DNA from: Chiloscyllium plagiosum
Lineage: Eukaryota
Reading direction: 5' to 3'
DNA length: 64,000 nt
NCBI RefSeq assembly: GCF_004010195.1
Contig: NC_057757.1
Span: 279,794 to 343,793, forward strand
Positions 1,975-63,685 of this stretch are shown here, in pieces. The notes under the pieces are model-generated. The model was not told the origin of the DNA, did not search any database, and worked only from the letters and a program-made list of their open reading frames with translations. Every line of letters begins with the position of its first letter. The stretch's first letter is position 1. The position numbers and the translations under genes are program-made.

Positions 1975-2978
1975 TGTCGGAATGGCAATTGCCTCACAAT
2001 TCTCCTTGAGTTTGCTCCCATCTCCTCCCACAGTTAAAGATGTGCAGGTTAGGGTGGATTGGCCATGGTAAAGTGTCCCATAGTGCCCAGGGATGTGCAG
2101 GTTAGGGTGGATTGGCCGTGGGAAATTGTCCCATAGTGCCCTGGGATGGGCAGGTTAGGGTGGATTGGCCATGGGAAATTGTCCCATAGTGCCCAGGGAT
2201 GTGCAGGTTAGGGTGGGTTAGCCATGAGAAATTGTACCATAGTGTTCAGGGATGTGCAGTTTAGGGTGGATTGGCCATGGGAAATTGTCCCATTGTGCCC
2301 AAGGATGTGCAGGTTAGGGTGGATTGGCCATGTGAAATTGTCCCATAGTGTCCAGGGATGTGCAGGTTAGGGTGGGTTAGCCATGAGAAATTGTCCCATA
2401 GTGTCCAGGGATGTGCAGGTTAGGGTAGATTGGCCGGGGGAAATTGTCCCATAGTGCCCAAGGATGTGCAGGTTAGGGTGGATTGGCCATGGGAACTTGT
2501 CCCATAGTGCCCAGGGATGTGCAGGTTAGGGTGGGTTGGCCAGGGGAAATTGTCCCATAGTGCCCAGAGATGTGCAGGTTAGGGTGGGTTAGCCATGGTA
2601 AATTGTCCCATAGTGCCCAGGGATGTGCAGGTTAGGGTGGATTGGCCATGGGAAATTGTCCCTTAGTGTCCATGGATGTACAGGTTAGGGTGGATTGGCC
2701 ATGGGAAATTGTCCCATAGTGCCCAGGGATGTGCAGGTTAGGGTGGATTGGACATGGGAAATTGTCCCTTAGTGCCCAGGGATGTGCAGGTTAGGGTGGA
2801 TTGGCCATGGGAAATTGTCCCATAGTGTCCAGGGATGTGCAGGTTAGGGTGGATTCGCCATGGGAAATGCAGGGGTACAGGAATAGGGAATGAGTCTGGG
2901 TGAGATGCTGTTTGGAGGGTTGACTTTGACTTGATGGGCTGAATGGTGTTTTTCTGCACTGTCGGGATTCTATGATTC
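1975..2978 (+). mobile_element. HE1-like SINE with expanded internal 53-bp array
   Basis: Degenerate body, then tandem units, then the LINE-derived tail ...CACTGTCGGGATTCTATGATTCT. Confidence 0.8.
2039..2868 (+). repeat. 53-bp minisatellite, ~15-16 copies
   Basis: Unit GGGATGTGCAGGTTAGGGTGGATTGGCCATGGGAAATTGTCCCATAGTGCCCA; period 53 (2041, 2094...). Confidence 0.95.
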
Positions 2979-3153
2979 TGTGTGTGTGTGTGTGTCTGTC
3001 TGTCTGTCTGTGTGTGTCTGAGTGCATCTGTCTGAGAGTGTTTGTGTGTGTGGGATCATTATGATACAGCATGGTCTCAGTGATGGTGAAACCACGCAAG
3101 ATGTTGCGCTGTGAATATTGTGAGCACATCCCCAGTCAATGGGGTTGACGATG

Positions 3154-3653
3154 NNNNNNNNNNNNNNNNNNNNNNNNNNNNNNNNNNNNNNNNNNNNNNN
3201 NNNNNNNNNNNNNNNNNNNNNNNNNNNNNNNNNNNNNNNNNNNNNNNNNNNNNNNNNNNNNNNNNNNNNNNNNNNNNNNNNNNNNNNNNNNNNNNNNNNN
3301 NNNNNNNNNNNNNNNNNNNNNNNNNNNNNNNNNNNNNNNNNNNNNNNNNNNNNNNNNNNNNNNNNNNNNNNNNNNNNNNNNNNNNNNNNNNNNNNNNNNN
3401 NNNNNNNNNNNNNNNNNNNNNNNNNNNNNNNNNNNNNNNNNNNNNNNNNNNNNNNNNNNNNNNNNNNNNNNNNNNNNNNNNNNNNNNNNNNNNNNNNNNN
3501 NNNNNNNNNNNNNNNNNNNNNNNNNNNNNNNNNNNNNNNNNNNNNNNNNNNNNNNNNNNNNNNNNNNNNNNNNNNNNNNNNNNNNNNNNNNNNNNNNNNN
3601 NNNNNNNNNNNNNNNNNNNNNNNNNNNNNNNNNNNNNNNNNNNNNNNNNNNNN
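3154..3653. other. Assembly gap (other gaps: 26506-27107, 28451-28501, 29745-30508, 33654-34153, 48396-48448, 50781-50910)
   Basis: Runs of N. Confidence 1.
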
Positions 3654-4037
3654 AGCGTTCCTTTCCAGACCCTCCCCTCATCCTATCCCCATAACTCTTC
3701 ATTTCCCATGGCCAATCCACCCTAACCTGCACATCCCTGGGCACTGTGGGACAATTTCCCATGGCCAATCCATCATAACCTGTACATCCCTGGACACTTT
3801 GGGACAATTTCCCATGGCCAATCCACCCTAACCTGCACATCCCTGGGCACTATGGGACAATTTCCCACGGCCAATCCACCCTAACCTGCACATCTTTGGA
3901 TTGTGGGAGGAAACTGGAGCACCTGCAGGAGACCCACCGCAGACAAGGGGAGAATGTGCAAACTCCACAGAGACAGTCACCTGAGGGTGGGATCAAACCC
4001 AGGTTCCTGGTGCTGGGAAGCAGCAGTGCGAACCACT
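3654..4037 (-). mobile_element. HE1-like SINE with ~4 internal 53-bp units
   Basis: tRNA-like head near 3990-4037 and 53-bp units 3700-3895. Confidence 0.85.
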
Positions 4038-4711
4038 ATCTGCTTCACAGTATTGGCATCTTATTAACTGCCTCGCGATTGCTGTTGTGGTATTGAATCT
4101 GGTGGAGAATAGCAAAGAAGCAGCTGTTTTGCTGTAGAGAACTTGGATCTTGCTGTCAAGAGAGACATACTGTTGACATCTTGTTGTCATCAGGACACAC
4201 ACAAGAATACTAGATTTCTAATTGGCCTCACAATGTATACAACTTGGACAAAGTGTGCTGATAGTTTGAGGTTTTGTGATATCAATAATAACAGGGGGTT
4301 TTAGGCTTCCCACATCCCTGGGTAATTGAGAGAAAGCGAGTTCTTGCTGCTCCAGTCTCAGCGTGCTTTCAGTGGCCCCAGTTGAAGTCATCCACTGCCA
4401 GTTAATTTCTGAGAATTGAGATGATGCGTTTGGAGCATCCTCCGGTTAAACTCATCTGAAAATGCCCGCTGTTGTCTGATCTTGGAAGCAAAATGGGTTC
4501 AAACCTGGCTAGTACCGGGATGGCAGACCACCTAGGAATACCATTTTTATGAGGAAAGGTGGACTTGTGATGCGATGGTACCCTTGAGCCAGGAGGCCTG
4601 GGTTCAATCCCCATCTGCTGCAGAGGTGTGTCATAACATCCCTGAACACAGTCAGTGGAAATTACCTCCCATGTTCGGAGCTGTGTTCCTTCAGGTTTAA
4701 TTCATACAACC

Positions 4712-5103
4712 AGAGAATCACTACAGTGTGGAAGCAGGCCATTTTGCCCATCGAATCCACAACAACCCTTCAAAGACATCCCAACCCTGCCCTATCCCTG
4801 TACCTCTGCATTTCCCGTGGCTAATCCATCTGGCCTGCACATCCCTGGACACTATGGGACAATTTCCCATGGCCAATCCACCCTAACCTGCACATTCCTG
4901 GACACAATGGGACAATTTCCCAAGGCTAATCCATCCAACCTGCACATCTTTGGATTGTGGGAGGAAATCAGAGCATCCGGAGGAAACCCATGCAGACACG
5001 GGGAGAATGTGCATACTTCATACAGACAGTCGCCCGAGGAATCGAACCCAGGTTCCTCGTGCTGGGAGGCAACAGTGCTAACCACAGAGCCACCATGCTG
5101 CCC
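4712..5103 (-). mobile_element. Full-length HE1-like SINE (~3 units)
   Basis: Head GGGCAGCATGGTGGCTCTGTGGTTAGCACTG...GGTTCGATTCC, central units, LINE-like tail. Confidence 0.85.
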
Positions 5104-5562
5104 TAATTGTTGGAAAGTTTTAAAATATTTTAAACTTTCAACTTGCAAGTTTTAGTTTTCCTTTCTCTCTGACTCTTTCTGTCTCTGTGTCACCCTCTCT
5201 CTTTCTCTCCATTCAAGAACCTTCCCTTTTTTATTTGTCTGTGATCCGCCATTGATTTCAAAACCCCCATCCCTCCCTTTCACTCTGATCCTCTCTTCAT
5301 TTCAGTGTCATCAAAGCATTGCCTATTTGTTTAGTTCCCATGGGATCACTTGGGTCTCACTGTAATGTACTCAGTTTGAACTTGGAGCAATGTCTCAGTG
5401 AAAGTTGAGACATAAGCAACATGCTCCAGTCCATAGTCTTCCACACGTTTGCATGTTCCACGCTATGAGCCATTCTGAAAGCTTGCAGTGACCTTCCACT
5501 GTGACCATTAATGACCCAAGACACAGAAATCAATAATTATTCTCAAATCTCACTCTCACAGG

Positions 5563-7216
5563 GGTAGTATCGGATGTTGGAGTTAGGCAAATATTGTTCC
5601 TCTGTTCAAGAAAGGGAATAGTGAAATCCCTGGGAATTACAGACCAGTCAGTCTTACATCTGTGATAAGCAAGGTATTGGAAAGGATACTGAGAGATAGG
5701 ATTTACGACTAATTGGAAAAACATAATTTGATTAAAGATAGTCAGCCTGGCTTTGTGAGGGGCAGGTCTTGCCTCACAAGCCTTATTGAGTTCTTTGAGG
5801 ATGTGATGAGACAAGCTGACAAAGGTCGAGTTGTGGATGTGGTGTATATGGATTTCAGTGAGGCATTTGATAAGGTTCCCACGGTAGGCTTATTGAGAAA
5901 GTTGGGAGGTAAGGGATACAGGGGAATGTGGCTGTCTGGATACAGAATTGTCTGGCCGAAAGAAGACAGCGAGTGGTAGTGGATGGAAGATATTCCGCCT
6001 GGAGCTCGGTGACCAGTGGTGTCCCGCAGGGATCTGTTCTTGGGCCTCTGCTCTTTGTAGTTTTTATAAATGACTTGGATGAAGAAGTGGGAGGGTGGGT
6101 TAGTAAGTTTGCCGATGACACAAAGGTCAGTGGGTGTTGGAGATAGTATCGAGGGCTGTTGCAGGCTACAACATGACATTGACAGGATGCAGAGCTGGGC
6201 TGAGAAGTGGCAGATGGAGTTCAACCTGGATAAATCTGAAGTGATTCATTTTGGAAGGTCAAATTTGAATGCTGATTACAGGGTTAAAGACAGGTTTCTT
6301 GGCAGTGTGGCGGAACAGTGGGATCTTGTGGTCGATGTACGTAGATCCTTCAAAGTTGCCACCAGAATTGATAGGGTTGTTAAGAAGGCTTATGGTGTTT
6401 TGGCTTTCATTAACAAGGGGATTGAGTTTAAGAGCCACAAGGTTTTACTGCAGCTCTATAAAACTCTGGTTTGACCACAGTTGGAATATTGTCAAGATTA
6501 GAGTGGTGCTGGAAAAGCACAGCAGGTCAGGCAGCATCCGAGGAGCAGGAAAATTGACGTTTCAGGCAAAAGCCCTTCTCAGGAATCCAATGAAGGGCTT
6601 TTGCCCAAAACATCGATTTTCCTGCTCCTTGGATGCTGCCTGACCTGCTGTACTTTTCCAGCACCGCACTAATCTCCAGCATCTGCAGTCCCACCTCTGC
6701 CTTGGAATATTGTGTCCAGTTCTGGTCGCCTCATTATTGGAAGGATGTAGATGTTTTAGAGAGGGTGCAGAGAAGATTTACCAGGATGCTACCTGGATTG
6801 GAAAGCTTGGCTTATGAAGAGAGATTGAGTGAGCTTGGGCTTTTCACACTGCAGAGAAGAAGGAAGACAGGTGCCTTAATAGAGGTATACAAGGTAATGA
6901 GAGGCATAGATGGATTGGATAGCCAGAGACCTTTCCCCTGGGCAGAAATGGCTGTCACGAGGGGGCAGCATTTTAAGGTGTTTGGAGGAAGGTTTAGGGG
7001 AGATATCAGAGGGAGGTTCTTTACTCAGAGAGTGGGGGGTGTGTGGAATGCACTGCCAGCAGTGGGAGTAGGGTCAGAGACATTGGGAACATTTCAGCGA
7101 CTGCTGGATAAGCACCTGGACGGCAGTAAATTGAGGGGTGTGTAGGTTCGGATGGTCTTAGATTAAGGGAAATACTTTGGGCCGAAGGACCTGGACTGTG
7201 CTGTTCTATGTTCTAT
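5563..7216 (+). mobile_element. CR1 (HER1-like) LINE, 5'-truncated ORF2 RT region to 3' tail
   Basis: [71 protein letters not shown]; frameshifted; (TTCTATG) tail. Confidence 0.95.
6493..6701. mobile_element. Fold-back Penelope-type mini-element (family A) inserted in CR1
   Basis: Inverted arms centred near 6585; exact 12-bp TSD TTGGAATATTGT at 6481-6492 and 6702-6713. Confidence 0.85.
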
Positions 7217-7459
7217 CAGCTTTATAAATGCATAAAGATAAAAAGCTGCACACAGCCGGTCAGCCAATTTCTAACAGCAATAATTACTCAAATTAATTAT
7301 ATTTTCCCTGATGGTGCGATAGAATCTCTTAATTTCTGCATTAAATCTACAAATTTCAAATTCAAATAGTACAAACACAGGCAATTGCTATATGATGCCT
7401 GTCCATCCCGGGTATTTGTGGATTTCGTTGCTTTTTAACCAGAGCCAGCATGTGGTTAA

Positions 7460-8035
7460 GTATGGAGTAAAATTCCCTACACTCTGTTAAACTGAAAGTA
7501 AATCTCTCTCACACTGTCTCCATCATACACTCCCAGGAAGGGTGCAACACGAGGTTAGACACAAAGTAAAGCTGCCTCTATTCTTTTAAAGTGAAAGTCA
7601 AGGTCCCTCTACATTGTCCCCCCTATGAAATACTCCCAGGATAGGGATAGCACAGAGTTAGGTACAGGGTAAAGCTCGCTCTACACTGTCCCCCCATCAA
7701 ACACTCTCAGGGACAGGGACAGCATGGTGTTAGATACAGAGTAAAGCTCCCTCTACACTGTCCCCCCATCAAACCCTCCCAGTACAGTGACAGCACGGGG
7801 TTAGATACAGAGTAAAGCTCCTCTACACTGTCCCTCCATCAAACCCTTCCAGTACAGTGACAGCATGGGGTTAGATACAGAGTAAAGCTCCCTCTACACT
7901 GTCCCCCCATCAAACCCTCCCAGGGACAGGAATAGCACAGGGGTATATACAGAGTAAAGCTCCCTCTACACTGTCCCCCCATCAAACCCTCCCAGAACAG
8001 TGACAGCACAGGGTTAGATACAGAGTAAAGCTCCC
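7460..8035 (+). repeat. ~70-bp minisatellite, ~8 copies
   Basis: Unit GGGACAGGGACAGCACGGGGTTAGATACAGAGTAAAGCTCCCTCTACACTGTCCCCCCATCAAACACTCCCA (TAGATACAGA at 7731, 7802...). Confidence 0.9.
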
Positions 8036-8524
8036 ATCTTCTTTATATCAGGCTTTTTTCTGCTCAGTGATGTCACATCACCTTCTCTATGCCTCCTAAT
8101 GAAGGTGACATTTGAAGATAAAACATCAACTATCTAGGAAGATAAATATTGCTTTGGAAATCAGCAGCATACCTGATGCTGAGTCTGAGCTGCTTGCTGA
8201 GGGAGGTAACGTTTAGCTCTATTTTAATGAACAACGGTTGCTTTAGAAACTGGACCATCTAAGTGATGTGACAGTGAATATTTTAACACTAAATTGAGGC
8301 TTTGAGCGAGGGGGTGGAGAGTTGCCGTGAGCAGGGGGCCGTGTTCTGGAAGGATCAGTCACTCTACAGATGGCTGAGCTGACTGTGTGTGTAAGCTTTA
8401 TATTTAATTAACATTCTCCTTGTATTGGCTCTGGCCAGTGGATGGCAAAGCGCCTTTCAGGCTCTTACCTCTCTTCCTTAGTGCACAGCTCGATCCCAGG
8501 TTCAAATCTGCCTTCTATTGTTTA

Positions 8525-9000
8525 TAGACTCATACAGTCATACAGCACGGAAACAGACCCTTCACCCTAGCTCGTCCATGCCGACCAGATATCCGAACCT
8601 AATCTAGTCCCATTTGCCAGCAGCCAGCCCATATACCTCTAAACCTTTCCGATTCATATACCCATCCAGATGCCTTTTAAATGTTGTAATTGTACCAGCC
8701 TCCATCACTTCCTCTGGCAGCTCATTCCATACACGCACCACCCTCTGAGTAAAAAGGTTGCCCCTTAGGTCCTTTTATATCTTTTCCCTCTCACCCTAAA
8801 TCTATGCCTGTCTGGTTTTGAATTCCCCTTCACTGGGGTAAAGACCTTGGCTATTCACATCTTGTCTGTGCCCCTCGTGATTTTATAAACATCGAGAACG
8901 TCCCCCCTCAGCCTTCAGTGAAGAGAGGTCCAGCCTCTCCTTATAATTCAAATCCTTCAGTGCCGGTAAAACCCTTGTCAATCCTTTTTGCATCCTTTCC
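8525..9000 (-). mobile_element. CR1 3' fragment
   Basis: Reverse complement encodes RVVRVWNELPEEV-type C-terminus and tail. Confidence 0.85.
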
Positions 9001-10688: not shown

Positions 10689-11135
10689 GGTTAGAGGGTT
10701 GGAGCTATAGGGAGCGGCTGGATAGACTGGGGCTGTTTTCATTGGAGCTTTGGAGGCTGAGGGGTGACCTCATAGAGATTTATAAAATAATGAGGGACAT
10801 GGATAGGGTAAATTGACAAGGTCTTTTCCCTAGGGCAGGGGAGTCCAGAACTAGAGGGCATAGGTTTAGGGTGAGAGGGGAAAGATGTAAAAGGGATCCA
10901 AGGGGCATAGAGCATGGTGCGTGTATGGAATGAGCTGCCAGAGGAAGTGGTGGAGACTGGTACAATTGCAACATTTAAAAGGCATCTGGATGTATTTTTA
11001 GGAAGGGTTTGGAGGGATATGGGCCAAGTGCTGGCAAGTGGGACTAGGTTTGGGTTGGGATATCTGGCTGGCATGGACAATTTGGACCGAAGGGTCTGTT
11101 TCTGTGCAGTACATCTGTATGAGTCGATGACTCTA
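10689..11135 (+). mobile_element. CR1 3' fragment inserted in a decayed Deu-domain SINE
   Basis: RLRGDLIEIYKIMR, VWNELPEEVVE; flanked by CTACCAG direct repeats; host SINE pieces at 10635-10688 and 11140-11300. Confidence 0.85.
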
Positions 11136-11726
11136 CCAGTCTGAGCACAGCAAGATCCCAGAAACAGTGCAGTGATGATGACAAGAGAAGCTATTTTGGG
11201 TGATATGGCTATGCTGTAGATGGTGACACCCACCCCCACTCCACCTTACCCGGACACTGAGAAGGATTCCCCCATGTCCTCCCTTTGCCATTGTAGCTGT
11301 AGCGCTGAGAAATGAGGACGGCTGCTGTGTTTCAGAGACGGCAGCCCTTAACTCTGCTTGCACTCTTAGGAGGTTTTCAAACAAATCACATTGCAACTTG
11401 CTCTGCAATCAGTTTGCTGTATGCTTGTTCCAGCTTTCTGAGGAGCTGAGTTGGAGCAATTAATGAGTTAATGTTGGTCGACAACACGTATATGAAATTG
11501 CACCTTTGGCTTCAAATTTACGACCAGCTCCCGTTGGTCTCTGATGAGCTTTTAAACTGACTGTACAGCTATGGAATGAAATGTCAGGCACGCATTGTGA
11601 ACTTTCAGTAATATATTTCGACTCTCTGACGATTTGTCAGAATGGTTCCGGGGGTAAAGGCCAGACGGTTAGATTGGAGAAGTTGGGCTTCTTCAATTCA
11701 GAGAAAAGGAAACTCAAAGGAGTTGC

Positions 11727-11820
11727 AAAGTTAAAAATCACACAACACCAGGGAATAACCGAACAGGCTCCTTCACCAGGTGGTTCATCAGGTACACCCC
11801 AGTCCAACACTGGCATCTCC
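11727..11820. mobile_element. Deleted Penelope-type mini-element (family B)
   Basis: AAGTTAAAAATCACACAACACCAGG...CACCCCAGTCCAACACTGGCATCTCC matches 13180-13388; flanked by AAAGGA(G/A)TTG repeats. Confidence 0.7.
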
Positions 11821-12022
11821 AAAGGAATTGTGATGGAGTGTGCAAGATAATGTCAGCTTCAGGGAAGGTGGGGGTGAGAAAGCTGCTCTCATTTCTTGAT
11901 GTTCAAGGACAAGTGGGTAATATGTGGAAGAGCTATTTTTATGCAGCAAATCGTGGTCCACATTGGGACTAATGACATCAGAAGGAAGGATTGAGGTCCT
12001 AAAGGAACCTCAGGGAGTGTTT

Positions 12023-12700
12023 TTAGTTCACTCTTGAGATGTGGGAGTCACTGGCTGGGTCAGCATTTATCACCCTAGTTGCCCCCCTTGAGAAGGTGGG
12101 GGTGAGCTGCCTTCTTGACCCGCTGCAGTCCATGTGCTGGAGGGTAGACCCACAATGTCCCTGAGGGAAGGAATCCCAGGATTCTGATCCAGCCACACTG
12201 AAGGAACAATGATATATTTCCAAGTCAGGATGGTGAGGGGCTCGGAGGGGAACTTGCAGGGGGTGGGGTTCCCATGTACCTGCTGCCCCTTGTCCTTCTG
12301 GATGGAAGTGGCCGTGGGTTTGGAAGGTGCTGCCTGAGGGTCTTTGGTGAGTTTCTGCAGTGTATCTTGTAGCTGGTACACACTGCTGCTACTGAGTGTC
12401 AGTGGGTAAGGGAGGGAGGGGATGTTTGTGCGTGTGGGGCCAATCAAGCGGGGGCTGCTTTGTCCCTGGATGGCATCGTGTTTCTTGAGTGTTGTTGGAG
12501 CTGCCCCCATCCAGGGGCAAGTGGGGAGTATTCCCTCACCCTCCTGACTTGTACCTTGTAGATGGTGGGTCAGGCTTTGGGGAGTCAGGAGGTGAGTTAC
12601 TGACTGCAGTATTCCCAGCCTCAGCCGTGCTCTTGTAGCCGCAGTTGTTATATGGTTAGTCTAATTCAGTTTCTGGTCAGTGGTAACCTCCAGGATGTTC
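12023..12700 (-). mobile_element. L2/CR1-clade LINE 3' fragment
   Basis: EYSPL..MGAAPTTLKKHDAIQ...ILTWKYI; the same tail recurs at 21943-22320, 29005-29330 and 55345-55620. Confidence 0.75.
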
Positions 12701-13179
12701 AGTACCTTGGATGGCAATGAAATGCAGGATCTCAAGTGCAGTAATCTCAGGATTGTATAAAGTGCTAGCGGCCATGAGAAACGAGGATCCACCGATTAAA
12801 TAGGTGGCTAGAGAACTGGTGTAGAAGGAAAGGTGTCCGATTTCTTACCAACTGGAACTGGTCCTGGGGCAGATGGGACCAGTACAAGATGGACAAGTGA
12901 CACTTGAATTGGATAGGGACTGATAAGCTCAGAGAGGAGTTTGCTTGTGCTGTTGGGCTGATTTAAGCCAGCTACTTACGGCAATAGGAATCGGGGGTGG
13001 GGGTTTACCCACATTGGAAGGAAGTGAAATTGGCAACAGGAAGTTATGAAAGTGTGTGGGAGACTGGCAGACCTGAGATACAAACCTGAAAGCAGAATTA
13101 TGTCAAAGAAAAGTCAAAGTTCAGGGTGCTCCACACAACATTTACAACTAGGTTGATGTTTGTGTCTTTAAAACAGATA

Positions 13180-13388
13180 AAGTTAAAAATCCCACAACAC
13201 CAGGTTAGAGTCCAACAGGTCTATTTAGAAGGACTAGCTTTCTGAGCATTGCTCCTTCATCAGGTACCTGAAGGAGCAGCGCTCTGAAAGCTAGTGTGCT
13301 TCCAAATAAACCTGTTGGACTCTAACCTGGTGTTGTGGGATTTTTAACTTTGTCCACCCCAGTCCATCACCAGCACCTCCAAACCATT
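13180..13388. mobile_element. Fold-back Penelope-type mini-element (family B)
   Basis: ~85-bp inverted arms centred on GGTACC (13263-13268); AACAGATA repeats at 13172-13179 and 13391-13398. Confidence 0.85.
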
Positions 13389-13402
13389 ACAACAGATAGA
13401 CA

Positions 13403-13812
13403 TGGGTATTTTTCACTGGAGCATAGCAGGTTGAGGGGTGACCTTACAGAAGATTATCAAATCATGAGGAATATAGATAGAGTTAATGGTAGGTGCCTTT
13501 TCCCTCGGGTGGGGTTTTTAAGACTACAGGGCATACTTTTAAGGTAAGAGGAGAGAGACTTAAAAAAGACATTGGGGCAATTTTTTACATAGAGCACGGT
13601 TCACATGTGGAATGAACTTCCTGAAGAAGTGGTGGATGTGAGAATAGTTACAATGTTTAATAGACATTTGGATCAGTCGATGAATAAGGAGGTTTGGGAG
13701 GGAAATGTGCCAGGAGCAGGCAGGTGGGACTAGTTTAGTTTGAGATTATGGTCAGCACGGACTGGTTGGGCCGAAGGGTCTGTTTCTGTGCTGGATGACT
13801 CTACGACTCGAT
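13403..13812 (+). mobile_element. CR1 3' fragment
   Basis: FSLEHSRLRGDLTE..IMR, WNELPEEVV and tail. Confidence 0.85.
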
Positions 13813-14324
13813 GATCTGGTTGTCATTACAGTAACAAAGTGTCATGGTGACCAGGACCGTGATGTGACAATCAAGGATATTTGACATTTGGACAGGGGCA
13901 GACAAGAAGGAAATGAAGATGGTGATGTACTGTTAATGAAGGGTTGGGAAGGGAGGATCAGTTGTGAGCAATCTGTTTGGTGGAGCTAAGAAGCAGCAAG
14001 GGTTTGGAGGTATTTATAAGTGACCTAGTAGTCGTGGTTGTGTGGGTTATGATATGGAAATGAAAAAAGCATGTCGCGCTCCAATTTGCATATCGACCGG
14101 TAAACCAACTGAGCACTAAAAGCGGTGGAGGACGAGGTTCCAGAATGTGTTTGGGATGGTTTACTAGAACCAACTTGTGGACCAGCTGTTTGAGATATCA
14201 TGTTCTGTAATGGGAAAGGGCTAATTAATGACCTTGTTCAGAAAGAACCTTTGGGGATGAATAACCATAATATGATTTTGTTTGAAAGTGAAGTACTTCA
14301 ATCTGCAGCAAGTTGTTAAATTTA

Positions 14325-14900
14325 TGGAGTCACAGAGGGCGACAGCATGGAAACAGACCCTTGGCCCAACATGTCCATGCTGCCCAGCTTTCACAATTTA
14401 ATCAAGTCCCATTTGCCTGGGTTTGGTCCATATCCCTCCATACCTATCTCCTCCATGTACCTGTCTAAATGTTTGTTAAATGACAAAATTGTACTCACCT
14501 CTGCCACTTCCTCTGGCAGCCTGTTCCAGACACTCACCACCCTCTGTGTGAAACAATTGTCCCTCTGGACCATTTTGTATATCTCCCCTCTCAACTTCAA
14601 CCTATGTCCTCTAGTTTTAGACTCCCTTACCACGGGGAAAAGCTGTTGACTATATACCTTATCCATGTCTCTGATGATTTTATAAATCTCTATTAGATCA
14701 CCCTTCACACCTCAGGTTCCAGGGAAACATGTCTCAGCCTATCCAGCCTCTCCTTATAATGCAAACCTTCCACTCCAGGCAGCATCCTAGTAAATCTTTG
14801 CTGCACTCTTTCTAGTTTAATAATACTCTTTCTGTAGTACGGTGACCAGAACTGCCCGCAATATTCTAAATGTGGCCTCACCAAAAGCTTGTACAGTTGT
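14325..14900 (-). mobile_element. CR1 3' fragment
   Basis: ORF 14391-14708 KGDLIEIYKIIR...RVVSVWNRLPEEV. Confidence 0.9.
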
Positions 14901-15096: not shown

Positions 15097-15657
15097 AAAG
15101 CACTGATTGGCCGAGGTGGATTAGGAAAATACATTGAAAGGTATGACAGTATAAACAATGGACAGTCCTTAAGAACAGCAGCTGTACATGACTTCACAGT
15201 GCAGATACTCAAACAAGGTCAATTGTAGCTAACAAAGAAACAAAGAGGACCAAGAAATTAGTAAGGAAAGGGAGAATAGAACGTAAATATGCTCTAGAAA
15301 AAACTGGACTGTAAAAAAGCTTCTGTGTACAAAAAGGAAACCCAGTGGGGTCAGATGGTGGAGAATCTGTGGGGTAGCATTGAGGAACCGCACGATGATA
15401 AAACCATAGTTGGAGTTATGTACAGGCCTCCAAACAGTAGTCAGGAGCTGGGGCTCAAGATACCTCAGGAGATAGAAAAGGTGTATAGGAAAGGCAAAGT
15501 CACAGTGATCACGGGGAACTTCGATCTGCAGGTGGGCTGGGAACATCAGGTTGGTGGTGCATTGCAAGAAAAGGAATTTGTGGAATGTCTTCCAGACGGC
15601 CTTTTGGAGCAGCTTGTGGTGGAGCCCACGAGGGAACAGGCCATACTGGATTTAGTG

Positions 15658-15765
15658 GGAGAAAGCTTCATTCCTGATGAAGAGCTTATGCCCGAAACGT
15701 CGACTCTCCTGTTCCATGGGATGCTGCCTGACAGGCTGTGCTTTTCCAGCACCACGCTCTCAAAC
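15658..15765 (+). mobile_element. Penelope-type mini-element (family A)
   Basis: Exact 13-bp TSD ACTGGATTTAGTG at 15645-15657 and 15766-15778. Confidence 0.85.
15670..15705 (+). ncRNA. Minimal type I hammerhead ribozyme-like motif
   Basis: ATTC-CTGATGA-A-GAGC-TTAT-GCCC-GAA-ACGT-C-GACT: conserved CUGANGA and GAAA boxes, stem II with one mismatch, palindromic stem III, GUC site. Stem I is weak. Confidence 0.6.
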
Positions 15766-18429
15766 ACTGGATTTAGTGTTGTGCATTGAGGCAGACGTGG
15801 TAAGGGAGCGTCAATGAAGGAACCTTTAAGAGACAGTGATCACAATATGATCGAATTTACTCTGCAGTTTGAGAGGGAGAAGATAGAATCTGAGGTAACA
15901 GTGTTGCAGCTGAATAAAGGCAATGAGAGAAGCACGAGGGAGGAGCTGGGTAGGACTGACTGGGAGAGGATCCGAGCAGGAAAGACAGTGGGACAGCAAT
16001 GGCAGGAGTTTCTGGGAGTAACTCAGGAGACACAGCAGAGATTCATCCCGAGGGAAAAGAAGCGTGGTACAGGGAGGATGAGGCAACCATGGCTGACCAG
16101 GGAAGGCAGGGATAGCATCAAAGCAAAAGAGAAAGCATATAATGTTGGGAAGGGCAGTGGGAAACCGGAGGATTGGGAAGCTTACAAAGACCAATACAGG
16201 ACAACAAAAAAAGAAATAAGGAGGGAGAAGATTAAACGAGGGTACGCCAGCCAGTAATATAATGGAAGACTGTAAGACTTTCTTTGGATATATAAGGGGC
16301 AAAAGTGGCCATTGGGCCGCTGGAAAATGATGCTGGAGAAATAGTAGTGGGGGACAAGGAAATAGCTGAGCAACTGAATAATTACTTGGTGTCTGTCTTC
16401 ACGGTGGAAGACACGAGTAATATCCCAAAAATTCAAGAGAGTGTTGGGGAAGACCTAAGTATGGTGGCCCTTTCCAAGGAGAAGGTACTAGATAAACTGA
16501 ATAGCCTGAAGATGGATAAATTACCTGGACCAAATAGACTGCATCCGGGATTTCGAAGGGAGATAGCTGTTGAGATAGTGGAGGCGTTAGTGGTGATCTT
16601 CAGGAATCACTAGAATCAGGGAGGATCTCAGAGGATTGGAAACTCACTAACATGACACCACTGTTTAAAAAGGGAGTAATACAAAAGATAGAAAATTACA
16701 GATCAATTAACCTAACCTCAGTCGTGGGTAAGATCCTGGAACCCATTGTGAAAGATAAGATTCCTGAATATTTTGGAAGTGTATGGTAGAGTAGGGAAAA
16801 ATCAGCATGGCTTCATCAAGGGGAGGCCATGCCTGACAAATCTGTTCAAGTTCTTTGAGCAAGGTAGGCCAAGGAGAGCCAATGGATGTTACCGACCTGG
16901 ACTTCGGGAAAGCCTTTGACAAGCTGCCGCACAGGAGGTTGCTGAGTAAGATAAGGGCCCCAGGGTGTCAGAGGCAAGGTGCTAGCATGGATTGAAGCTT
17001 GGCTTGTCTAGCAGGAAGCAGAGAGTCGGGATAAAAGGCTCCTTCTCAGGATAGCAGCTGGTGACAAGTGATGTTCCACGAAGGTCAGTGTTGGAACCAC
17101 AACTTTTCACTTTATATATTAATGATCTGGATGAAGGAACTGAGAGCATTCTGGTGAAGTTTGCAGATGATACAAAGATAGGTAGAGGGACAGGTAGCAT
17201 TAAGGAGGCAGGGAGGCTGCAAAAGGATCTGGACAGGTTAGGAAAGTGGGCAAAGAAGTGGCAGATGGAATACAATGTGGGAAATTGTGAGGTCATGTAC
17301 TTTGGTGGGAAGAATAGAGGCATGGACTGTTTTCGAAATGGGGAGAAAATTCAGAAATCTGAAGTGCAAAGAGACTTGGGGAGTCCTAGTCCAGGATTCT
17401 CTCAAGGTAAATCTTGATGCAGTAGTTAGGAAGTCAAATGCAATCATGGCATTTATTTTGAGAGGATTTGAGTATAAAAGCAGGGATGTATTTCTGAGCT
17501 CTATAAGGCTCTGGTCAGACCACATTTGGAGTATTGTGTGCAGTTTTGGGCCCCGTGTCTCAGGAAGAATGTAATGGCCCTGGAGCGTGTTCAGCGGAGA
17601 TTCACGAGAATGGCCCCAGGAATGAAAAGCTTAACATCTGAGGAATGTTTGAGGATTCTAGGTCTATATTTGATGGAGTTTAGAAGGATGAGTGGGGGAT
17701 CTAATTGAAACATACAGAATACTGAATAGCCTGGACAGAGTAGATGTTGGAAAGATATTTCCATCGGTAGAAGAGATAGGACCCGAGGGCATAGCCTTAG
17801 AGTAAAGGGAAGTCCTTTTAGAATGGAGATAAAGAGAAACGTCTTCAGCCAGAGAGTGGGGAATCGATGGAATTCACTGCCACAGCAGGCTGTGGAGGCC
17901 AGTCGCTGAGTATATTTAAGACGGAGATAGATAGGGTCTTGAGTATCAAGGGGATTAAGGGTTATGGGGAGAAAGGGAGAGAATGTGATTGAGAAACTCA
18001 TCAGCCATGATTCAGTGGCAGAGCAGACTCGATGGGCTGAATGGCCATCCGATGTCTTATGGTAAACATTTGGCTGAAATGAATGCCGGTCTATCCCGGG
18101 CAGATTCAGAGGAATTTATAAAAGGGAATAGAGAAATGGCAGGAAGTTAAATGATTACAATATGTCTATTTTCATTGAGGAAGATACCAGAAATCTCTCA
18201 GGTCCAAAGATCCATGTGGCTGAGGAGAATGAAGAGTTGAAGGAAATGAGTATTGTTCAAAGGATTGTAATGGAAATTAATGGGGCCAAAATCCCTGGGA
18301 GTTGGCATGTGTACATTCCAGAGTGTTGAAGGATGGGATAAGTAGACACCTTGTAGATAGTGATCTGAATGGGCAGATTCAACATGAGTTTGCAAATGGG
18401 AATCCACGTTTGACAAACTTATGGAGTTA

Positions 18430-20441: not shown

Positions 20442-20568
20442 GCGAAAGTGAGTACACAGATGATGGAGATTAGAGTCAAGATTAGAGTGGTGCTGGGAAA
20501 GCACAGCAGGTCAGGCAGCATCCGAGGAGCAGGAAAATCAACGTTTCGAGCAAAAGCCCTTCATGAGT
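20442..20568 (-). mobile_element. Penelope-type mini-element (family A)
   Basis: Exact 14-bp TSD ATTGAATTGTTCAG at 20428-20441 and 20569-20582. Confidence 0.85.
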
Positions 20569-25339: not shown

Positions 25340-25818
25340 CAGTTTGAGCTCAGCAAGATCCCACAAGAGGCAATGTTACCATGACTAAAAGATCTATTTT
25401 GATTGATGTCAATTCAAGGGTTAAACATTATCCTGGATTCCAGAGAGGGACCCCAACTGTAATGGTGGCCACGGGATCGTTCATGTTGACCTGGGGACTT
25501 TGCATTTGCCCAAAATGTCGATTTTCCTGCTCCTCGGATGCTGCCTGACCGGCTGTGCTTTTCCAGCTCCACTCTAATCTAGACTCTGATTTCCATCATC
25601 TGCAGTCCTCACATTTGCCCAGCTCACTTTGGCAGGACATCAGTTTAATGAAAAATGGCCTCTGCGGCAGTGCGGCACTCCTTCAGCACTGACCCTCCGA
25701 CAGTGCAGCACTCCCTCAGCACTGACCCTCTGACAGTGCAACTTCCTCAGCACTGACCCTCCGACAGTGCAAAGATTCCTCAATTCCACATTGAGCTTTG
25801 GCCGTGGATTTTGTGACC
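25340..25818 (-). mobile_element. Deu-domain SINE with a nascent ~4-unit array and a nested family A element (~25500-25620)
   Basis: CAGCAAGATCCCACA body; units at 25665-25785; GATGCTGCCTGACCGGCTGTGCTTTTCCAGC insert. Confidence 0.75.
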
Positions 25819-30508: not shown

Positions 30509-31912
30509 CTCCCTCAGCACTGACCCTCTGACAGTGCCTGCTCCCTCAGCATTGACCCTCCAACAGTGCGGCACTCCCTCAGCACTGACCCTCTGACAGT
30601 GCCTGCTCCCTCAGCATTGACCCTCCAACAGTGCGGCACTCCCTCAGCACTGACCCTCTGACAGTGCCTGCTCCCTCAGCATTGACCCTCCGACAGTGCG
30701 GCGCTCTCTCAGCACTGATCCTCGACAGTGCAGCACTCCCTCAGCACTGACCCTCCGACAGTGCAGCACTCCCTCAGCACTGACCCTCTGACAGTGCCTG
30801 CTCCCTCAGCACTGACCCTCTGACAGTGCCCGCTCCCCCAGCACTGACCTTCCGACAGTGCCCACTCCCTCAGCACTGACCCTCCAGCAGTACTGCACTC
30901 CCTCAGCACTGACCCTCTGACAGTGCCTGCTCCCTCAGCGCTGACCCTCCGATAATGCAGCACTCCCTCAGCACTGACCCTCTGACAGTGCGGCGCTCCC
31001 TCAGCACTGACCCTCTGACAGTGCCTGCTCCCTCAGCACTGACCCTCCGACAGTTCCCACTCCCTCAGCACTGACCCTCTGACAGTGCCCACTCCATCAG
31101 CACCGACCCTCCAAAAGTGTGCAGCACCCTCAGCACTGACCCTCCGACAGTGCCCACTCCGTCAGCATGAACCCTCCAGCAGTGCCCAATCCCTCAGCAT
31201 CGAGCCTCTGACAGTGCCTGCTCCCTCAGCATTGACCCTCTGACAGTGCGGCACTCCCTCAGCACTGACCCTCTGACAGTGCCCGCTCCCTCAGCACTGA
31301 TCCTCTGACAGTGCCCGCTGCCTCAGCACTGATCCTCCAACAGTGCCCACTCCCTCAGCACTGACCCTCCGACAGCACAGCACTCCCTCAGCACTGACCC
31401 TCCGACAGTGCGGCGCTCCCTCAGCACTGACCCTCCGACTGTGCAGCACTTCCTCAGCACTGACCCTATGACAGTGCCCGCTCTCTCAGCACTGATCCTC
31501 CAATAGTGCCCACTCCTTCAGCACTGACCCTCCAGCAGTGCCCAATCCTTCAGCATCGAGCCTCCGACAGTGCCTGCTCCCTCAGCATTGACTCTCCGAC
31601 TGTGCGGCACTCCCTGAGCACTGACCCTCGACAGTGCAGCACTCCCTCAGCACTGACCCTCCGACAGTGCCTGCTCCCTCAGCACTGACCCTCCGACAGT
31701 GCCTGCTCCCTCAGCACTGACCCTCCAACAGTGCGGCGCTCCCTCAGCACTGACCCTCCGACAGTGCCTGCTCCCTCAGCACTGACCCTCGACAGTGCAG
31801 CACTCCCTCAGCACCGACCCTCCGACAATGCCTGCTCCCTCAGCACTCCCTCTCCGACAGTGCCCACTCCCTCAGCACCGACCCTCTGACAGTGTGGCAC
31901 TCCCTCAGCGCT
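30509..31912 (-). repeat. 32/33-bp minisatellite, >=43 copies (C-rich strand on +)
   Basis: Unit CACTCCCTCAGCACTGACCCTCCGACAGTGC(GG/C). Confidence 0.95.
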
Positions 31913-32780
31913 GGGTTAAAATCCTGCCCCTCCCTCCATAACGGCCTTGTGTGAATCCCTACTCTGTGCGCTGCAGTGGTTGAAGGAGGCTGCTCACCAT
32001 CACTTTTTCACACGTGGTGAGCGGTGGGTGGAAAGGCTAGACCCCTCAGTGGTGCCCACATCGTGTGAAAGAAGTTTTAAGAAAGTTTCCCATGTGACAA
32101 AGCTGCAGTAAGACCCACATGCTCCCTCATTGACAAAGCGTGATGTTGAAATAACTCAGAGGTGTGCAGATATCCCTGAGAATTGTGTTAAGAATGTTCT
32201 AGATTTCAAATCTCACCTCTCCCCCCCCCCAGCCGGGCCCAACACAGCCCTCTGCCAGTCCACCCCAGAATAACACCCTTTCTCCCTCACTGTTGACTCC
32301 ATTCAGTTTTGTGGATTTAAACATTTCTGCCTGCCTCCTGGGCAGTCCGATTGCAGTGCTTTCTATTTATATTTTCCGTTTATTCCAGGGCATTATTTTG
32401 CTGTTTATTTGCATTTGGGTGAGATGCTATTTAGCAATATTTAGCCAACAGGCTGATGTGACAGAGGAACACATTGCTGCAGCTGTTTGCGGTCCAGGCT
32501 GTGTTCACCCTGGATTGCTTCTGGTTTTCCTCCGTGTTCCAGCTCGGAGCACAGTGAGACTATCTCCATCCAGTGTCCAAGAGTGGAACTGCTGCGCAGC
32601 AGAGCAGGTGGATCTCAGGAATTGTCCTGACTGCTTGATCTAATTTGTATTTTCAAGAGGGTTAATCTGCTACTATTGAACGCCTGCTCCGTTCACTGGG
32701 AACTACCATGATCTCTGAGTCACAAAGTTCAAATACCACATCCGAGCCCAGTGATTCGATCGGCATAGTTTAAATTCTCA

Positions 32781-33653
32781 GTGTCGGAGGGTCAGAGCTG
32801 AGGGTGCACCACACTATCGGAGGGTCAGTACTGAGGGAGGGGGCACTGTCGGAGGGTCAGTGCTGAGGGAGTGCCGCACTGTCGGAAGGGCAGTGCTGAG
32901 GGAGCGAGCACTGTCGGAGGGTCAGTGTTGAGGGAGCGGGCACTGTCGGAGGGTCAGTGTTGAGGGAGCGGGCACTGTCAGAGGGTCAGTGCTGAGGGAG
33001 CGGGCACTCACTGTCGGAGGGTCAGTGTTGAGGGAGCGGGCACTGTCAGAGGGTCAGTGCTGAGGGAGCGGGCACTGTCGGAGAATCAGTGTTGAGGGAG
33101 CGGGCACTGTCAGAGGGTCGGTGCTGAGGGAGCGGGCACTGTTGGAGAATCAGTGTTGAGGGAGTGGGCACTGTCAGAGGGTCAGTGCTGAGGGAGCGGG
33201 CACTGTCGGAAAATCAGTGTTGAGGGAGTGCCACACTGTCGGAGGGTCAGTGTTGAGGGAGCGGGCACTGTCAGAGGGTCAGTGCTGAGGGAGTGCCGCA
33301 CTGTCGGAGGGTCAGTGTTGAGGGAGTGGGCATGGTCAGAGGGTCAGTGCTGAGGGAGCGGGCACTGTTGAGAGCCAGTGTTGAGGGAGCGCCGCTCTGT
33401 CAGAGAGTCAGTGCTGAGAGAGTGGGCACTGTCAGACAGTCAGTGCTGAGGGAGTGGGCACTGTTGGAGGGTCAGCGCCGAGGGAGTGGGCACTGTCGGA
33501 GAGTCAGTGCTGAGGGAGTGGGCAATGTCAGAGGGTCAGCGCTGAGGGAGTGGGCACTGTCAGAGTGTCAGTGCTGAGGGGGTGCCGCGCAGTTGGAGGG
33601 TCAGTGCTGAGGGAGTGGGCACTGTCAGAGGGTCAGTGCTGAGGGAGTGGGCA
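32781..33653 (+). repeat. 32/33-bp minisatellite, >=27 copies (G-rich strand on +)
   Basis: Unit GCACTGTCGGAGGGTCAGTGCTGAGGGAGTG(G/CC); decayed SINE head at ~32710-32780. Confidence 0.95.
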
Positions 33654-35317: not shown

Positions 35318-35808
35318 GAGGACACAGCTCAGTCCATCACAGTCCACCTCCCATCCACTGACTCCATCTACACTTCTCACTGTCTCAGGAAAGCAGCCCT
35401 CCCATCCCAGTTAGAACCTCTTCCAACCTCTTCTGTCAGGCTTTTGCCCGAAACGTTGATTTTCCTGCTCCTCAGATGCTGCCTGACCTGCTGTGCTTTT
35501 CCAGCACCACTCTAACCTAAACTCTGGTTTCCAGCATCTGCAGTCCTCACTTCTGCCGAGAATATACAGAAGCTTAAACACATGCACCAATAGGTTCAAG
35601 AACAGCTTCCCTCCCGCTGTTACTAGATTCCGGAATGGACATTTCAAATTCCAAATTTAATGTTGATCTGGCTCTCTGTGCACCTTCTCTTGTATTCCTC
35701 ACTCTGTTCTATAACCACATTGTATAGTCTGATCTGCCTGTACTGAACACGAAACAAAACTTTTCACTGTATCTTGGTACACATGACAATAATAAAACAA
35801 ATCAAACT
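35318..35808 (+). mobile_element. Rex/Babar-like 3' fragment with nested family A element (35438-35558)
   Basis: AQSIT.HLPSTDSIYTSHCLRKAA, TNRFKNSFP, AATAAAACAAATCAA tail. Confidence 0.75.
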
Positions 35809-36915: not shown

Positions 36916-38780
36916 CTCTCCAATATAACAAACTGGAACCTTGCAATGGTCAGGAACCCAACCAAGGTCAATAGTTTGGAAGGCAGCTCTGCTTATCATT
37001 AGACCACCATCGCTCGGAACTTGGACAGAGGATGGTTGCTTTCATTGTCCAAACAGCTGCATCTCGGGGAGCCCCTGGGAATCAACTGCTCAAATTCCTG
37101 ACTCGGAATGACTGTGGATTTGAGCCCCCACTCCTGATCACGCAACCTCAGGGGATACTGTGAGTGCCAGGACTGAAGGAGCACTGCATGGTCAGGGTAC
37201 ATCAAGCTCAGGTCTGTGCACCCTCCCCTCCAGGCAGGTGTTAAAGGAATCCACAGCCACTACTTGGAAGAGGGGCAGGGATTTTCACCGATCCTCATTA
37301 CTGATATTCATCCACCAGCCAACGAGGAAGTGGATGGTACGCAGTGCAAGATTACATTTGTGGGATCTTGCTGTGCCTGACTGGGCACTTGAGTCCCCCG
37401 CATCACACTAGGGACTACTCGATAACAAAACATTTCAGGAGGCTTTGAGCAGTGTGGAGCAAAACACACACCCGAAACGTAGATTCTCCTGCCCCTCGGA
37501 TGCTGCCTGACCGGCTGTGCTCTCCCAGCCAGGAGCAAGCTGTTCGCTTCTAATTGGTGCTTGTCATGCCAACAGAGAACAAACTGCACAAGGAACACAC
37601 AAAGCCACACGCACATCTGCAACCTACTCCCTTACCCTCACTCCCACATGCCCGACCAGGCAGGCAGTCTGAAGTCTTGCTTCCCAATGGAACCTAATCG
37701 GGTGTCAACTAGAAACAAAACCAAACAGCCATTCGTCCCCAATGCTGACCCACCTAGATTTATCTCCGGGCAACTGATTGGGGGGGGGGGCAAAAGTCCA
37801 GGAGAGAAATCAGAGAGAGGGTATCAAACAAACCTATGTGGTTACTTCATCTCAATGTTACATTTTCCTTCCATAATAACAAAACCATTGGAGGCAGGAG
37901 GCTGGTTCACACACACAAGAGCCCAAATGGGTAATGTGTTTCTCTGTGGAGTTGTGTCGGGTGTGGAACAGAAGAAGGCCATTCAGCCCAGCTGGTCCAT
38001 TCCACTATTCAACGAGATCATGGCTGAATTGATAGTCCCCAACATTTTCCTTCCCCATAATCCTTGCTTCCCTTTCCAATTGAAAACTTGTTTACCTCAG
38101 CCTTGAATATACTTCATGACCCAGTCCTCTGCAGTTGAGAATTCCACTGATTCACCACTGTCAGAAAAGAAATTCCTCCTTGTCTTTGTCTACAATGGGT
38201 GACTCCTGCCCCCGCACCCCGCCCCCCCCCACAAAGCTGCGAGATGATGCCTTGATCCCAGACCCTCCCTATGGCGAGGGGGTGAAAACCTCTGCACAGT
38301 CTCATAAGGGCATGAGAGATGCTGAGACTGTTGTCCTCAGAGAGGAGAGGATTGAGGGGAGATAGAGACGTGCAAGATCACGAGGGGTCGGCACGGAGTC
38401 AACAAGGAGAAATTGTTTCCCTTGGGAAACGTTTCAGGAATCAGACGGAATTGATTCAAGGTAATTAGCAAAACGACCAACAGCAACATGAGAGAAAAAA
38501 AAGTTTCTTCATGTGAGCGATTCAGGTGTGGAACACCCAGCCTGAGTGTGGTAGAGGCAGGTTCACTGATGACTTTCAAAAAGCAATAGATAACCACGTG
38601 AAGAGACAAGTTTGCAGAGGGTTACAGAGAAAAGGCAGGCAAGTGAGATTTGGAGAGGTACACTTACAAAGAGCCGGTACAGACACATCAGGCCAAATGG
38701 CCTCCTTCTACGTAGCAACTACTTGATGATCGTGAGGCCTTCTCCCATCCCTGTAATCCTATCCTCCTCTCACAGTTAAA

Positions 38781-39285
38781 CTGTAGCTCAGTAGATCCGA
38801 GGAGCAGGAGAGCCGACGTTTCGAGCAAAAGCCCTTCATCAGGAAACCTCCAGCACCACAGTCTCGACTCTGATCTCCAGCAGCTGCAGTCCTCACTTTC
38901 TGCTGTAGCTCAGTAGGTGGCACTTTGAAAGCTCTGAAGCATTAGGTTTTGGGTCTACGACAGGACTAAAGCCATCGAATCAGGTACTGATGGGCTGTTG
39001 CATGAGGAGAGGCATTTTCCTAAATTGAGGCATTAACCAGAGATTCCCATCGGCCTGCTCTCAGATCTAAAACATTCCATCACATTATTCCAAAGAGTCC
39101 ATGTCTTGACCAACGAGCATCCCTCAATCAACATCCCTCAATCAAAACAGATGACAGTGAGAGCTTGCTGTGCACTAATTGGCAGCCGCGTCCTCTACAT
39201 TACAACGGAACTCCACCTCAAAGGAAGTCCTTCACTGACTGTAAAACAATGCAAAGCCCTAATAAATGCAGGTGCTTTTGTTTCT
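38781..39285 (+). mobile_element. Decayed Deu-domain SINE, single seed unit
   Basis: GTAGCTCAGTAGG head, GGTACTGATGGG seed, AGCTTGCTGTGCAC-AATTGGCAGCCGCG-TACATTACAAC, ATAAATGCA tail. Confidence 0.7.
38795..38902. mobile_element. Family A mini-element with internal inversion and intact hammerhead core on minus strand (38812-38845)
   Basis: Exact 14-bp TSD CTGTAGCTCAGTAG at 38781-38794 and 38903-38916; minus strand CTGATGA-A-GGGC-TTTT-GCTC-GAA-ACGT-C. Confidence 0.85.
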
Positions 39286-50529: not shown

Positions 50530-51057
50530 CATGGGAAATTGTCCCATAGTGTCCTGGGATGTGCAGGTTAGGGTGGCTTGACCATGGGAAATTGTCCCAT
50601 AGTGTCCAGGGATGTGCAGGTTAGGGTGGCTTGACCATGGGAAATTGTCCCATAGTGTCCAGGGATGTGCAGGTTAGGGTGGATTGGCCATGGGAAATTT
50701 TCCCATAGTGCCCAGGGATGTGCAGGTAAGGGTGGATTGGCCATGGGAAATTGTCCCATAGTGCCCAGGGATGTGCAGGTNNNNNNNNNNNNNNNNNNNN
50801 NNNNNNNNNNNNNNNNNNNNNNNNNNNNNNNNNNNNNNNNNNNNNNNNNNNNNNNNNNNNNNNNNNNNNNNNNNNNNNNNNNNNNNNNNNNNNNNNNNNN
50901 NNNNNNNNNNGGATTGGCCATGGGAAATGCAGGGTTATGTGTAAAGAGTAGGTTGGGGGGGGGGGGGTTGTGGAGGATCTGGGTGAGTTGCTTTTTGGAG
51001 GGTTGGTGTGGATTTGATGGGCCAAATGGCTTTCTTCCACACGGTAGGGATGCTATG
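50530..51057 (+). mobile_element. Headless HE1-like SINE with 53-bp array (left arm of inverted duplication)
   Basis: 53-bp units, then tail CCACACGGTAGGGATGCTAT. Confidence 0.85.
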
Positions 51058-56190: not shown

Positions 56191-56279
56191 CTGTTTGAAA
56201 AAGACACAAGGTTTTAGTGTCACAAAGACACAAAGGTGCAAAGGCCATTTTAAAACAAAATGTGTTAGCCTACTGCTGC

Positions 56280-63610: not shown

Positions 63611-63685
63611 GATCCCAGTTTTCCTGCTCGATTCCCAGCTCCCTCCTTTGGTCAGCAGCAAGCCTAGCTCTGTACAATAGCATAC

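Follow-up and report, generated by a model that had tools for sequence, protein, structure and literature searches.

A fold-back at positions 13172-13398 of a 64,000-nt window of the Chiloscyllium plagiosum genome (the window being the whole stretch of DNA analysed) carries on its arms strings that follow the hammerhead ribozyme pattern. We sought to identify what this structure is, by what route it arose and whether its motif could still act as a ribozyme. The first-pass annotation had assigned it to a second family of such fold-backs (here family B), set apart from a first one in the same window (family A). We find that the locus is a real feature, a decayed copy of an element class already described, and that it is very probably an insertion that was dead on arrival and severely 5'-truncated, the product of an endonuclease-bearing Penelope-like element (PLE), a retrotransposon. 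What was observed in favour of this reading is a pair of copies, placed head to head, of the last ~90 nt of a high-copy end module, together with a one-sided tail, a target-site duplication (TSD) and the presence of the insertion in three organisms. The proposed assignment of family B to PLEs rests on architecture and motif.

Architecture of the insertion and of a second copy

The locus is a single insertion consisting of an 8-bp TSD, an inverted arm, a direct arm and a one-sided tail of 35-39 nt (Table 1). Its TSD, AACAGATA, is an 8/8 direct repeat, or an 11/12 repeat if extended, in which case the left copy spans 13168-13179. The ends 13172 and 13398 given by the first-pass annotation coincide with the outer limits of the 8/8 repeat. 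The strings it had quoted, namely the minus-strand motif and the plus-arm string GGAGC-AGC-GCTCT-GAAAGCT-A-GTG from 13266, were present where it had placed them, and its statement that the other arm had lost part of the core was borne out by the plus arm, which is short by 3 core nt.

Table 1. Features of the fold-back insertion and of the second copy, in window coordinates.
Feature	Position	Strand	Remarks
Left target-site duplication AACAGATA	13172..13179	+	Last base doubles as the left arm's last paired base
Inverted, 5'-truncated end module (putative PLE), without tail	13179..13265	- (sense)	Starts at helix I position 2.2
Minimal type I hammerhead motif	13233..13265	-	C3 13263, G12 13242, A17 13235; decayed at 11.1 (A) and 1.3 (C)
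Fold-back centre	13256..13275	.	Zero spacer between 13265 and 13266; 2 nt 5' of C3
Direct end-module copy	13266..13351	+	Hammerhead core minus 3 nt; G10.1-U11.1; extra GT after the cut site
AATAAA polyadenylation signal, then GU/U-rich sequence	13305..13310	+	Left-arm equivalent 13225-13220 is AATAGA (mutated)
Tail of PLE type, 35-39 nt	13352..13390	+	Direct-arm side only; 80% A+C in first 35 nt
Right target-site duplication AACAGATA	13391..13398	+	Direct-repeat comparison
Left TSD of second copy	11715..11725	+	10/11 identical to right TSD
Second copy, left arm with 32-nt deletion	11726..11819	-	Natural upstream CAC retained
Right TSD of second copy	11820..11830	+	Direct-repeat comparison

Aligned to each other, the two arms were identical in 78 of 89 columns, the differences being 6 substitutions and 2 indels. 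The fold of the 227-nt element had a z-score of -15.5, with 0 of 200 shuffles folding equally well, and a transcript through the locus would be expected to form a hairpin of ~89 bp. The tail is predicted to pair back onto the GU-rich stretch upstream of it. The outer 42 bp of the arms were identical (13179-13220 vs 13310-13351), and all 8 differences fell within the inner 47 columns; this inward clustering gave P = 0.004 in a post hoc test, or 0.04-0.07 if only 5 or 4 events were counted. Both arms carry two variants (13192, 13208) that each occur in at most 8% of family B. These rare common variants suggest either one template for both arms or later conversion, and arm-to-arm conversion after insertion is possible. 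The GT indel between the arms suggests two templates or slippage, the extra GT of the direct arm being a variant present elsewhere in family B (loose ends at 13231).

The deleted copy that had been placed at 11727-11820 is likewise real, and runs from 11726 to 11819 between its own direct repeats. The 32-nt deletion in its left arm takes out the 3' half of helix II, the GAAA and the AATAAA. Its right arm is deleted save for the tail (about 11791-11819), which is the same as that at 13352-13390. We note a duplicated short core string at the 5' junction of this copy (11757-11792; CTGATGA, then CCAC and a variant core), adjoining the deletion that joins the copy to its tail. The 28-nt flanks are 71% and 64% AT.

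The hammerhead motif and the two families

Read along the minus strand, the left-arm motif runs CTGATGA from 13263, an extra A, GGAGC-AAT-GCTCA, GAAA, GCT, A17 and GTCC, which puts the predicted cleavage point between 13235 and 13234. The core (CUGANGA...GAAA...UH) is intact in this arm, with A as H17 and one extra nucleotide, A at 13256, preceding helix II; in the right arm the core is short by 3 nt. The G10.1-C11.1 pair is absent from both arms, being G·A in the left and G-U in the right. A palindromic AGCU at 15.2-16.2 is found in both, and the dimeric helix III that it would form is predicted only. Helix I has only 2 paired bp: the GTAC/GTCC helix I drawn earlier had borrowed a G and a T from the opposite arm at the fold-back centre. 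Folding calculations gave helix II a pair probability of 0.00 in the whole element and of 0.006-0.22 in the isolated arm. The helix I+II fold of the left-arm monomer lay at -2.4 kcal/mol, above the minimum free energy of -6.4, and when two left-arm motifs were cofolded, the minimum-energy form was not the hammerhead dimer.

A strict descriptor of the minimal hammerhead ribozyme (min-HHR) was run on the window and on 300 dinucleotide shuffles. It gave one match in the window, in family A (38842), against a shuffle mean of 0.02; when 2 bp of helix I were required, 0 of 300 shuffles matched. The descriptor did not detect the 13172-13398 copy, because its G10.1 faces A. An Rfam scan returned no hammerhead among 11 matches with E up to 5, a null result that carries no information here because minimal motifs lack helix III. 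Hammerhead grammar in the window is beyond chance, though the 13172-13398 copy is imperfect. A working ribozyme at this locus is not supported, given the G10.1·A11.1 mismatch, the 2-bp helix I, the broken core of the partner arm and the hairpin that would sequester the motif. By its sequence defects and its predicted fold, this copy is probably dead as a ribozyme.

Pairs of families A and B were compared after anchoring by hand, with the left arm of B set against four family A copies; family A copy A6590 and helix I of the right arm were left out as mis-anchored. Compensatory differences were found at 2.2-1.2 (A-U in B vs U-A in A), 10.3-11.3 (A-U vs G-C), 10.4-11.4 (G-C vs C-G) and 15.2-16.2 (G-C vs C-G). 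These four double-sided changes, counted in few sequences and without a statistical test, support the proposed fold. What A and B have in common is the core plus G10.1/G10.2. Downstream of the motif no similarity was detected between them, 105 of 1000 shuffles scoring equally well. Both families are likely PLE end modules of shared ancestry, and they are therefore not independent origins. The earlier description of the families as unrelated is borne out solely at the level of detectable DNA similarity. The accompanying argument, that structure was kept while sequence changed, stands for the four A/B pairs, but AGCU and CAC/GUG are already published (PMC4209133), and the claim of new evidence for a new fold is not supported.

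Further copies of family A lie at 6536-6634, 15671-15715, 20520-20567, 25502-25539, 35439-35477, 37473-37501, 38815-38842, 55904-55951 and 56757-56802. Most are truncated at or inside the core, the one at 6536-6634 is a fold-back, and none of the four tabulated copies is free of defects or wobble changes. A weak match to the family B motif at 4674-4696 on the minus strand (19/23, E 0.58) is possibly a very decayed family B copy or a member of another family.

Family B in genomic contigs and RNA

Four of 24 runs were mapped to 13090-13292, a segment made up of left flank, left arm and 27 nt of right arm. Three were contig runs, of organisms A, B and C (9,600, 9,428 and 9,559 mapped records), and one was an RNA run of organism A. 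The tables of variants and loose ends are unphased and per position, and what we say of them covers the rows listed. Relative to the flank, summed depth was about 2.5-3 x 10^5-fold in the arm and 2.4-6.6 x 10^4-fold in the core, ratios that are no copy number; this shows that family B is very abundant. A dip in depth at 13216-13236 was considered as truncation at the cut site and rejected, since private changes and subfamily differences reduce alignability there. Contigs of organisms B and C cross from the left flank into the arm, and the insertion therefore predates their split from A. No empty insertion site was seen among the contig pieces listed for the three organisms, none of which spans the full stretch. 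Viral contigs and metagenome contigs, scanned by pattern, gave 0 loci each. In the window, a 14-nt upstream motif had 3 matches at two mismatches, where chance gives a mean of 0.66 and 4 of 100 shuffles reach 3.

The majority letters of family B were identical across all four runs, and they restore what the 13172-13398 copy has lost. At position 11.1, C makes up 63-73% and U 21-33% of depth or reads in 4/4 runs, and 10.1 has no variant among the rows listed, so that the G10.1-C11.1 pair is intact in the family majority. Position 1.3 is G in 81-87%, H17 is A in 83-93% and U in 5-12%, G12 is kept in 88-91% and AATAAA is intact in 85-96% of family B depth. Helix I of the family is CAC/GUG with 3 bp, as read from the CAC of the second copy, the loose ends behind 13265 and the G majority at 1.3. 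Among the helix II rows listed (11.1, 11.4 and 11.5, from the unphased table), change is confined to the 3' side and falls at CpG in 2 of 3. Covariation among copies of family B, the check that the first-pass annotation had proposed, is not visible in these rows. Loss of G12 (9-12%) is similar to loss of a non-catalytic CpG G at 11.5 (8-22%). If dead copies decay neutrally, then one-sided change in helix II and loss of G12 are predicted, and both match.

Loose ends at 13177-13182 fell into two 3'-end classes, one with the tail (200, 230 and 278 records in the three contig runs) and one without it (81-117 records per row, leading into mixed AT-rich flanks). The sequence of the tail equals the loose end at 13179 in all four runs. 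Other loose ends, at 13226 (one run) and 13231 (three runs), mark at least two further subfamilies of family B, one with U17 and a different sequence before AATAAA and the other with an extra GT after the cut site. About 1% of the core depth extends beyond the fold-back centre of 13172-13398, which is therefore specific to this copy.

This last result also bears on whether the locus is a MITE or a fold-back DNA transposon bounded by terminal inverted repeats, with a hammerhead-like string that has arisen by coincidence. Such an element would be short, palindromic, flanked by a TSD and present in very high copy, as is seen here. However, the ends are asymmetric, with 35-39 nt of tail on one side; the TSDs differ in length between the copies (8 or 12 vs 11); only about 1% of the core depth has the 13172-13398 centre; and the module contains a poly(A) signal that is used, together with four pairs that are compensatory with family A. 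We regard the MITE reading as largely refuted and its residual probability as very slight.

The RNA came from a single poly(A) single-cell run of organism A, of which about 2% was read. None of the 982 mapped RNA reads was at least 99% alike to the 13172-13398 copy, and the reads therefore derive from other copies of family B. Poly-T loose ends were found in 389 of the 982, at 13205 (200 reads) and 13209 (189 reads), which corresponds to poly(A) sites 15 and 11 nt after the AATAAA hexamer on the sense strand. No poly-T tract occurred among the loose-end rows listed for the three contig runs, though genomic A-tracts at some loci are possible. RNA depth stayed level over the predicted cut (604, 624, 633), and the rows listed for the RNA run showed no accumulation of read ends there. 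Polyadenylated RNA that is uncut through the hammerhead thus exists, from other family B copies. The missing pile-up is no argument against cleavage, because a cut product of 25-30 nt would be too short to map. This poly(A) RNA stops before the tail, and is therefore unusable as a template for reverse transcription that starts at the tail.

These reads also weigh against a working, possibly domesticated hammerhead at 13172-13398 that cuts a host pre-mRNA after CUA within an intron. The minus-strand core (CUGAUGA/GAAA/UA) is intact, the insertion has been retained in organisms A, B and C, and the minus strand has exons resembling those of a DLG-family gene at about 63.7 kb and about 56.2 kb, so that a long intron may contain the motif in sense orientation. 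Against this stand the G10.1·A11.1 mismatch, the 2-bp helix I, the locking of the motif in a hairpin, a partner motif with a deleted core on the opposite strand, the count of 0/982 RNA reads at least 99% alike, and the published inactivity of single min-HHRs in vitro (PMC4209133). We hold a functional intronic ribozyme at this locus to be extremely improbable.

The window probably lies within long introns of such a minus-strand DLG-family gene. A Pfam match to L27_1 (E 1e-10) was found at 63546-63914 on the minus strand, and an exon-like frame at about 56150-56200, also on the minus strand, resembles the next DLG-family exon. Broken remnants of LINE-type reverse transcriptases lie at 57800-59400 (-), with a weak RVT_1 match at 58809-59216, and at 15300-17600 (+), with a weak RVT_1 match at 17055-17414 and an interruption by the family A copy at 15674. 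A sub-threshold 5S rRNA match at 4438-4556 (+; 30 bits vs a gathering score of 38, E 0.038) is likely a 5S pseudogene or a 5S-derived repeat. Tandem arrays occur as inverted blocks at 2087-3900, 31250-33370 and 50956-52539, some adjoining N gaps, and may in part be assembly artefacts; the window contains 2,600 N.

Another alternative concerns the unit of transcription. The stubs could be complete copies of a short RNA and not truncated copies of a long one, if they stem from a non-autonomous, SINE- or retrozyme-like mini-retroelement with its own transcription start just ahead of the hammerhead and a PLE protein to mobilise it in trans. Both window copies begin within a few nt of the core, and loose ends behind 13265 in the contig runs share ~10 nt of family sequence before becoming mixed (agreement 0.41-0.44, 125-178 records), which points to many 5' ends just upstream of the core. 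Yet 382 RNA reads run on upstream past 13265 into a common 28-nt sequence (agreement 0.65). This common sequence indicates transcripts from longer copies, so that longer transcripts than the stubs exist. Moreover, a tandem array is absent (0 rows at 11000-14500), the motif is minimal and not of the canonical type found in retrozymes (PMC7229834), and the one-sided tail is a PLE signature under either reading. We therefore consider a mini-retroelement unlikely, while granting it appreciably more weight than the other alternatives.

The position of the cut relative to the poly(A) sites raises a more speculative idea. From the predicted cut it is 9 nt downstream to the AATAAA in use and 25-29 nt to the poly(A) sites, and cleavage would therefore strip the poly(A) tail. 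The end module of family B might act as a poly(A)-removal switch, with cleavage triggered by PLE protein or by AGCU pairing between RNAs, and with the front edge of the folded motif serving as the point of reverse transcription stop and fold-back. We rate this switch as improbable. If it were real, it would strip tails from PLE mRNA and from host transcripts ending in dispersed copies, and would mean that a vertebrate retrotransposon regulates itself through a ribozyme, with effects across the genome.

Origin of the insertion and comparison with known systems

For the preferred reading, a 5'-truncated PLE insertion, the biochemistry of PLEs suggests the following course. The GIY-YIG nuclease would make staggered nicks in AT-rich DNA and so give rise to the TSD. 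Reverse transcription would start at two internal sites that bound the tail, leaving one arm tailed and the other tailless, and uncut RNA would be copied back through the hammerhead to its 5' edge. The two products would then be joined head to head, either by priming from both nicks or by snap-back. Copying of uncut RNA would account for arms that reach 31 nt past the cut site and contain the core, which an arm whose 5' end was set by cleavage would lack. At the level of the family, the motif would be a genuine PLE min-HHR, whose cleavage after CUA would need either dimer formation through the AGCU palindrome or help from protein, and the 13172-13398 copy would have decayed neutrally after insertion. 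As for the coding part of a PLE, Pfam found no GIY-YIG domain in the 122 frames of the window, and only two weak RVT_1 matches (17055, 58809), far from both family B copies.

There is good support for the view that family B behaves as a PLE end with a min-HHR. Our literature searches gave no paper on family B, which may well be catalogued in Repbase or Dfam. The locus itself, as a decayed stub of a described class, matters little. Family B offers a test bed for the role of min-HHRs in vivo, for 5' ends and fold-back centres at the front edge of the motif and for the origin of inverted arms, and its high abundance together with a poly(A) site behind an uncut motif makes such questions about PLEs accessible.

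Min-HHRs have been described in the pseudo-LTRs of metazoan Penelope-like elements, where they occur also as pairs on opposite strands and in several covarying families within one genome (Cervera and De la Pena, 2014; PMC4209133). Among the entries in the supplement of that study, a turtle motif has AGCU, a helix II of 5 bp and an AAUAAA further downstream, and CAC/GUG serves as helix I in entries from lamprey, limpet and sea urchin; its supplement file 2 has 0 matches for cartilaginous fish (shark, Callorhinchus, Leucoraja). Family B resembles these motifs in its CUGANGA, the extra nucleotide before helix II, the majority G10.1-C11.1 pair, the GAAA, the palindromic 15.2-16.2 without loop 3, the short helix I and the dispersed single and opposite-strand motifs. 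Several families per genome and compensatory changes between them are further points of likeness, whereas the 13172-13398 copy departs from the min-HHR consensus at 11.1 and 1.3. The abundance of family B looks far above the 4,000-9,000 motifs reported there for coelacanth and Xenopus, with the reservation that depth does not measure copy number. Single min-HHRs did not cleave in vitro in the same study.

Retrozymes carry canonical type I hammerheads and form head-to-tail tandem arrays (PMC7229834; for the topic and its background see PMC6155905 and PMC2377424). They have been reported in one chondrichthyan genome, in a preprint whose supplements may list family B (bioRxiv 10.64898/2026.07.22.740005). 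The 13172-13398 locus is like non-LTR retrozymes in being non-coding, in its type I hammerhead and in a kinship to PLE pseudo-LTRs, but differs from them in its head-to-head pair, minimal motif, tail and TSD. We considered identity with a retrozyme and rejected it: there are no tandem rows at 11000-14500, the arms are head to head, the motif is minimal and no Rfam hammerhead match was obtained.

The locus is also close to endonuclease-positive PLEs (Penelope/Poseidon, Neptune). A PLE insertion has been described as an inverted 5'-truncated copy with a tail of 30-40 bp at one end (PMC8557442), and TSDs of 8-10 bp and palindromes at the inverted junction are on record for PLE insertions (PMC3846280). 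In Poseidon_Ac the tail is the span between two start sites of reverse transcription in an AC-rich stem-loop, and at AT-rich sites the PLE protein cleaves both strands of the target and extends them (PMC11167929). Unlike those units, 13172-13398 retains no ORF, is about 210 bp long and turns back without spacer 2 nt upstream of the core. The Poseidon_Ac ORF starts inside the hammerhead, whereas here the core ATG meets a stop after 8 codons and then AATAAA. In the remaining traits the locus agrees with the endonuclease-positive PLEs: a head-to-head inverted 5'-truncated copy, a 30-40-bp tail at one end, a TSD of about 8-12 bp, an AT-rich target and an AC-rich stem-loop at the tail. The Poseidon_Ac work also describes that mainly uncut RNA is used and that the hammerhead cuts only with protein present (PMC11167929), and family B matches Poseidon_Ac in that uncut RNA appears to have been copied through the hammerhead, with no pile-up of read ends at the cut site.
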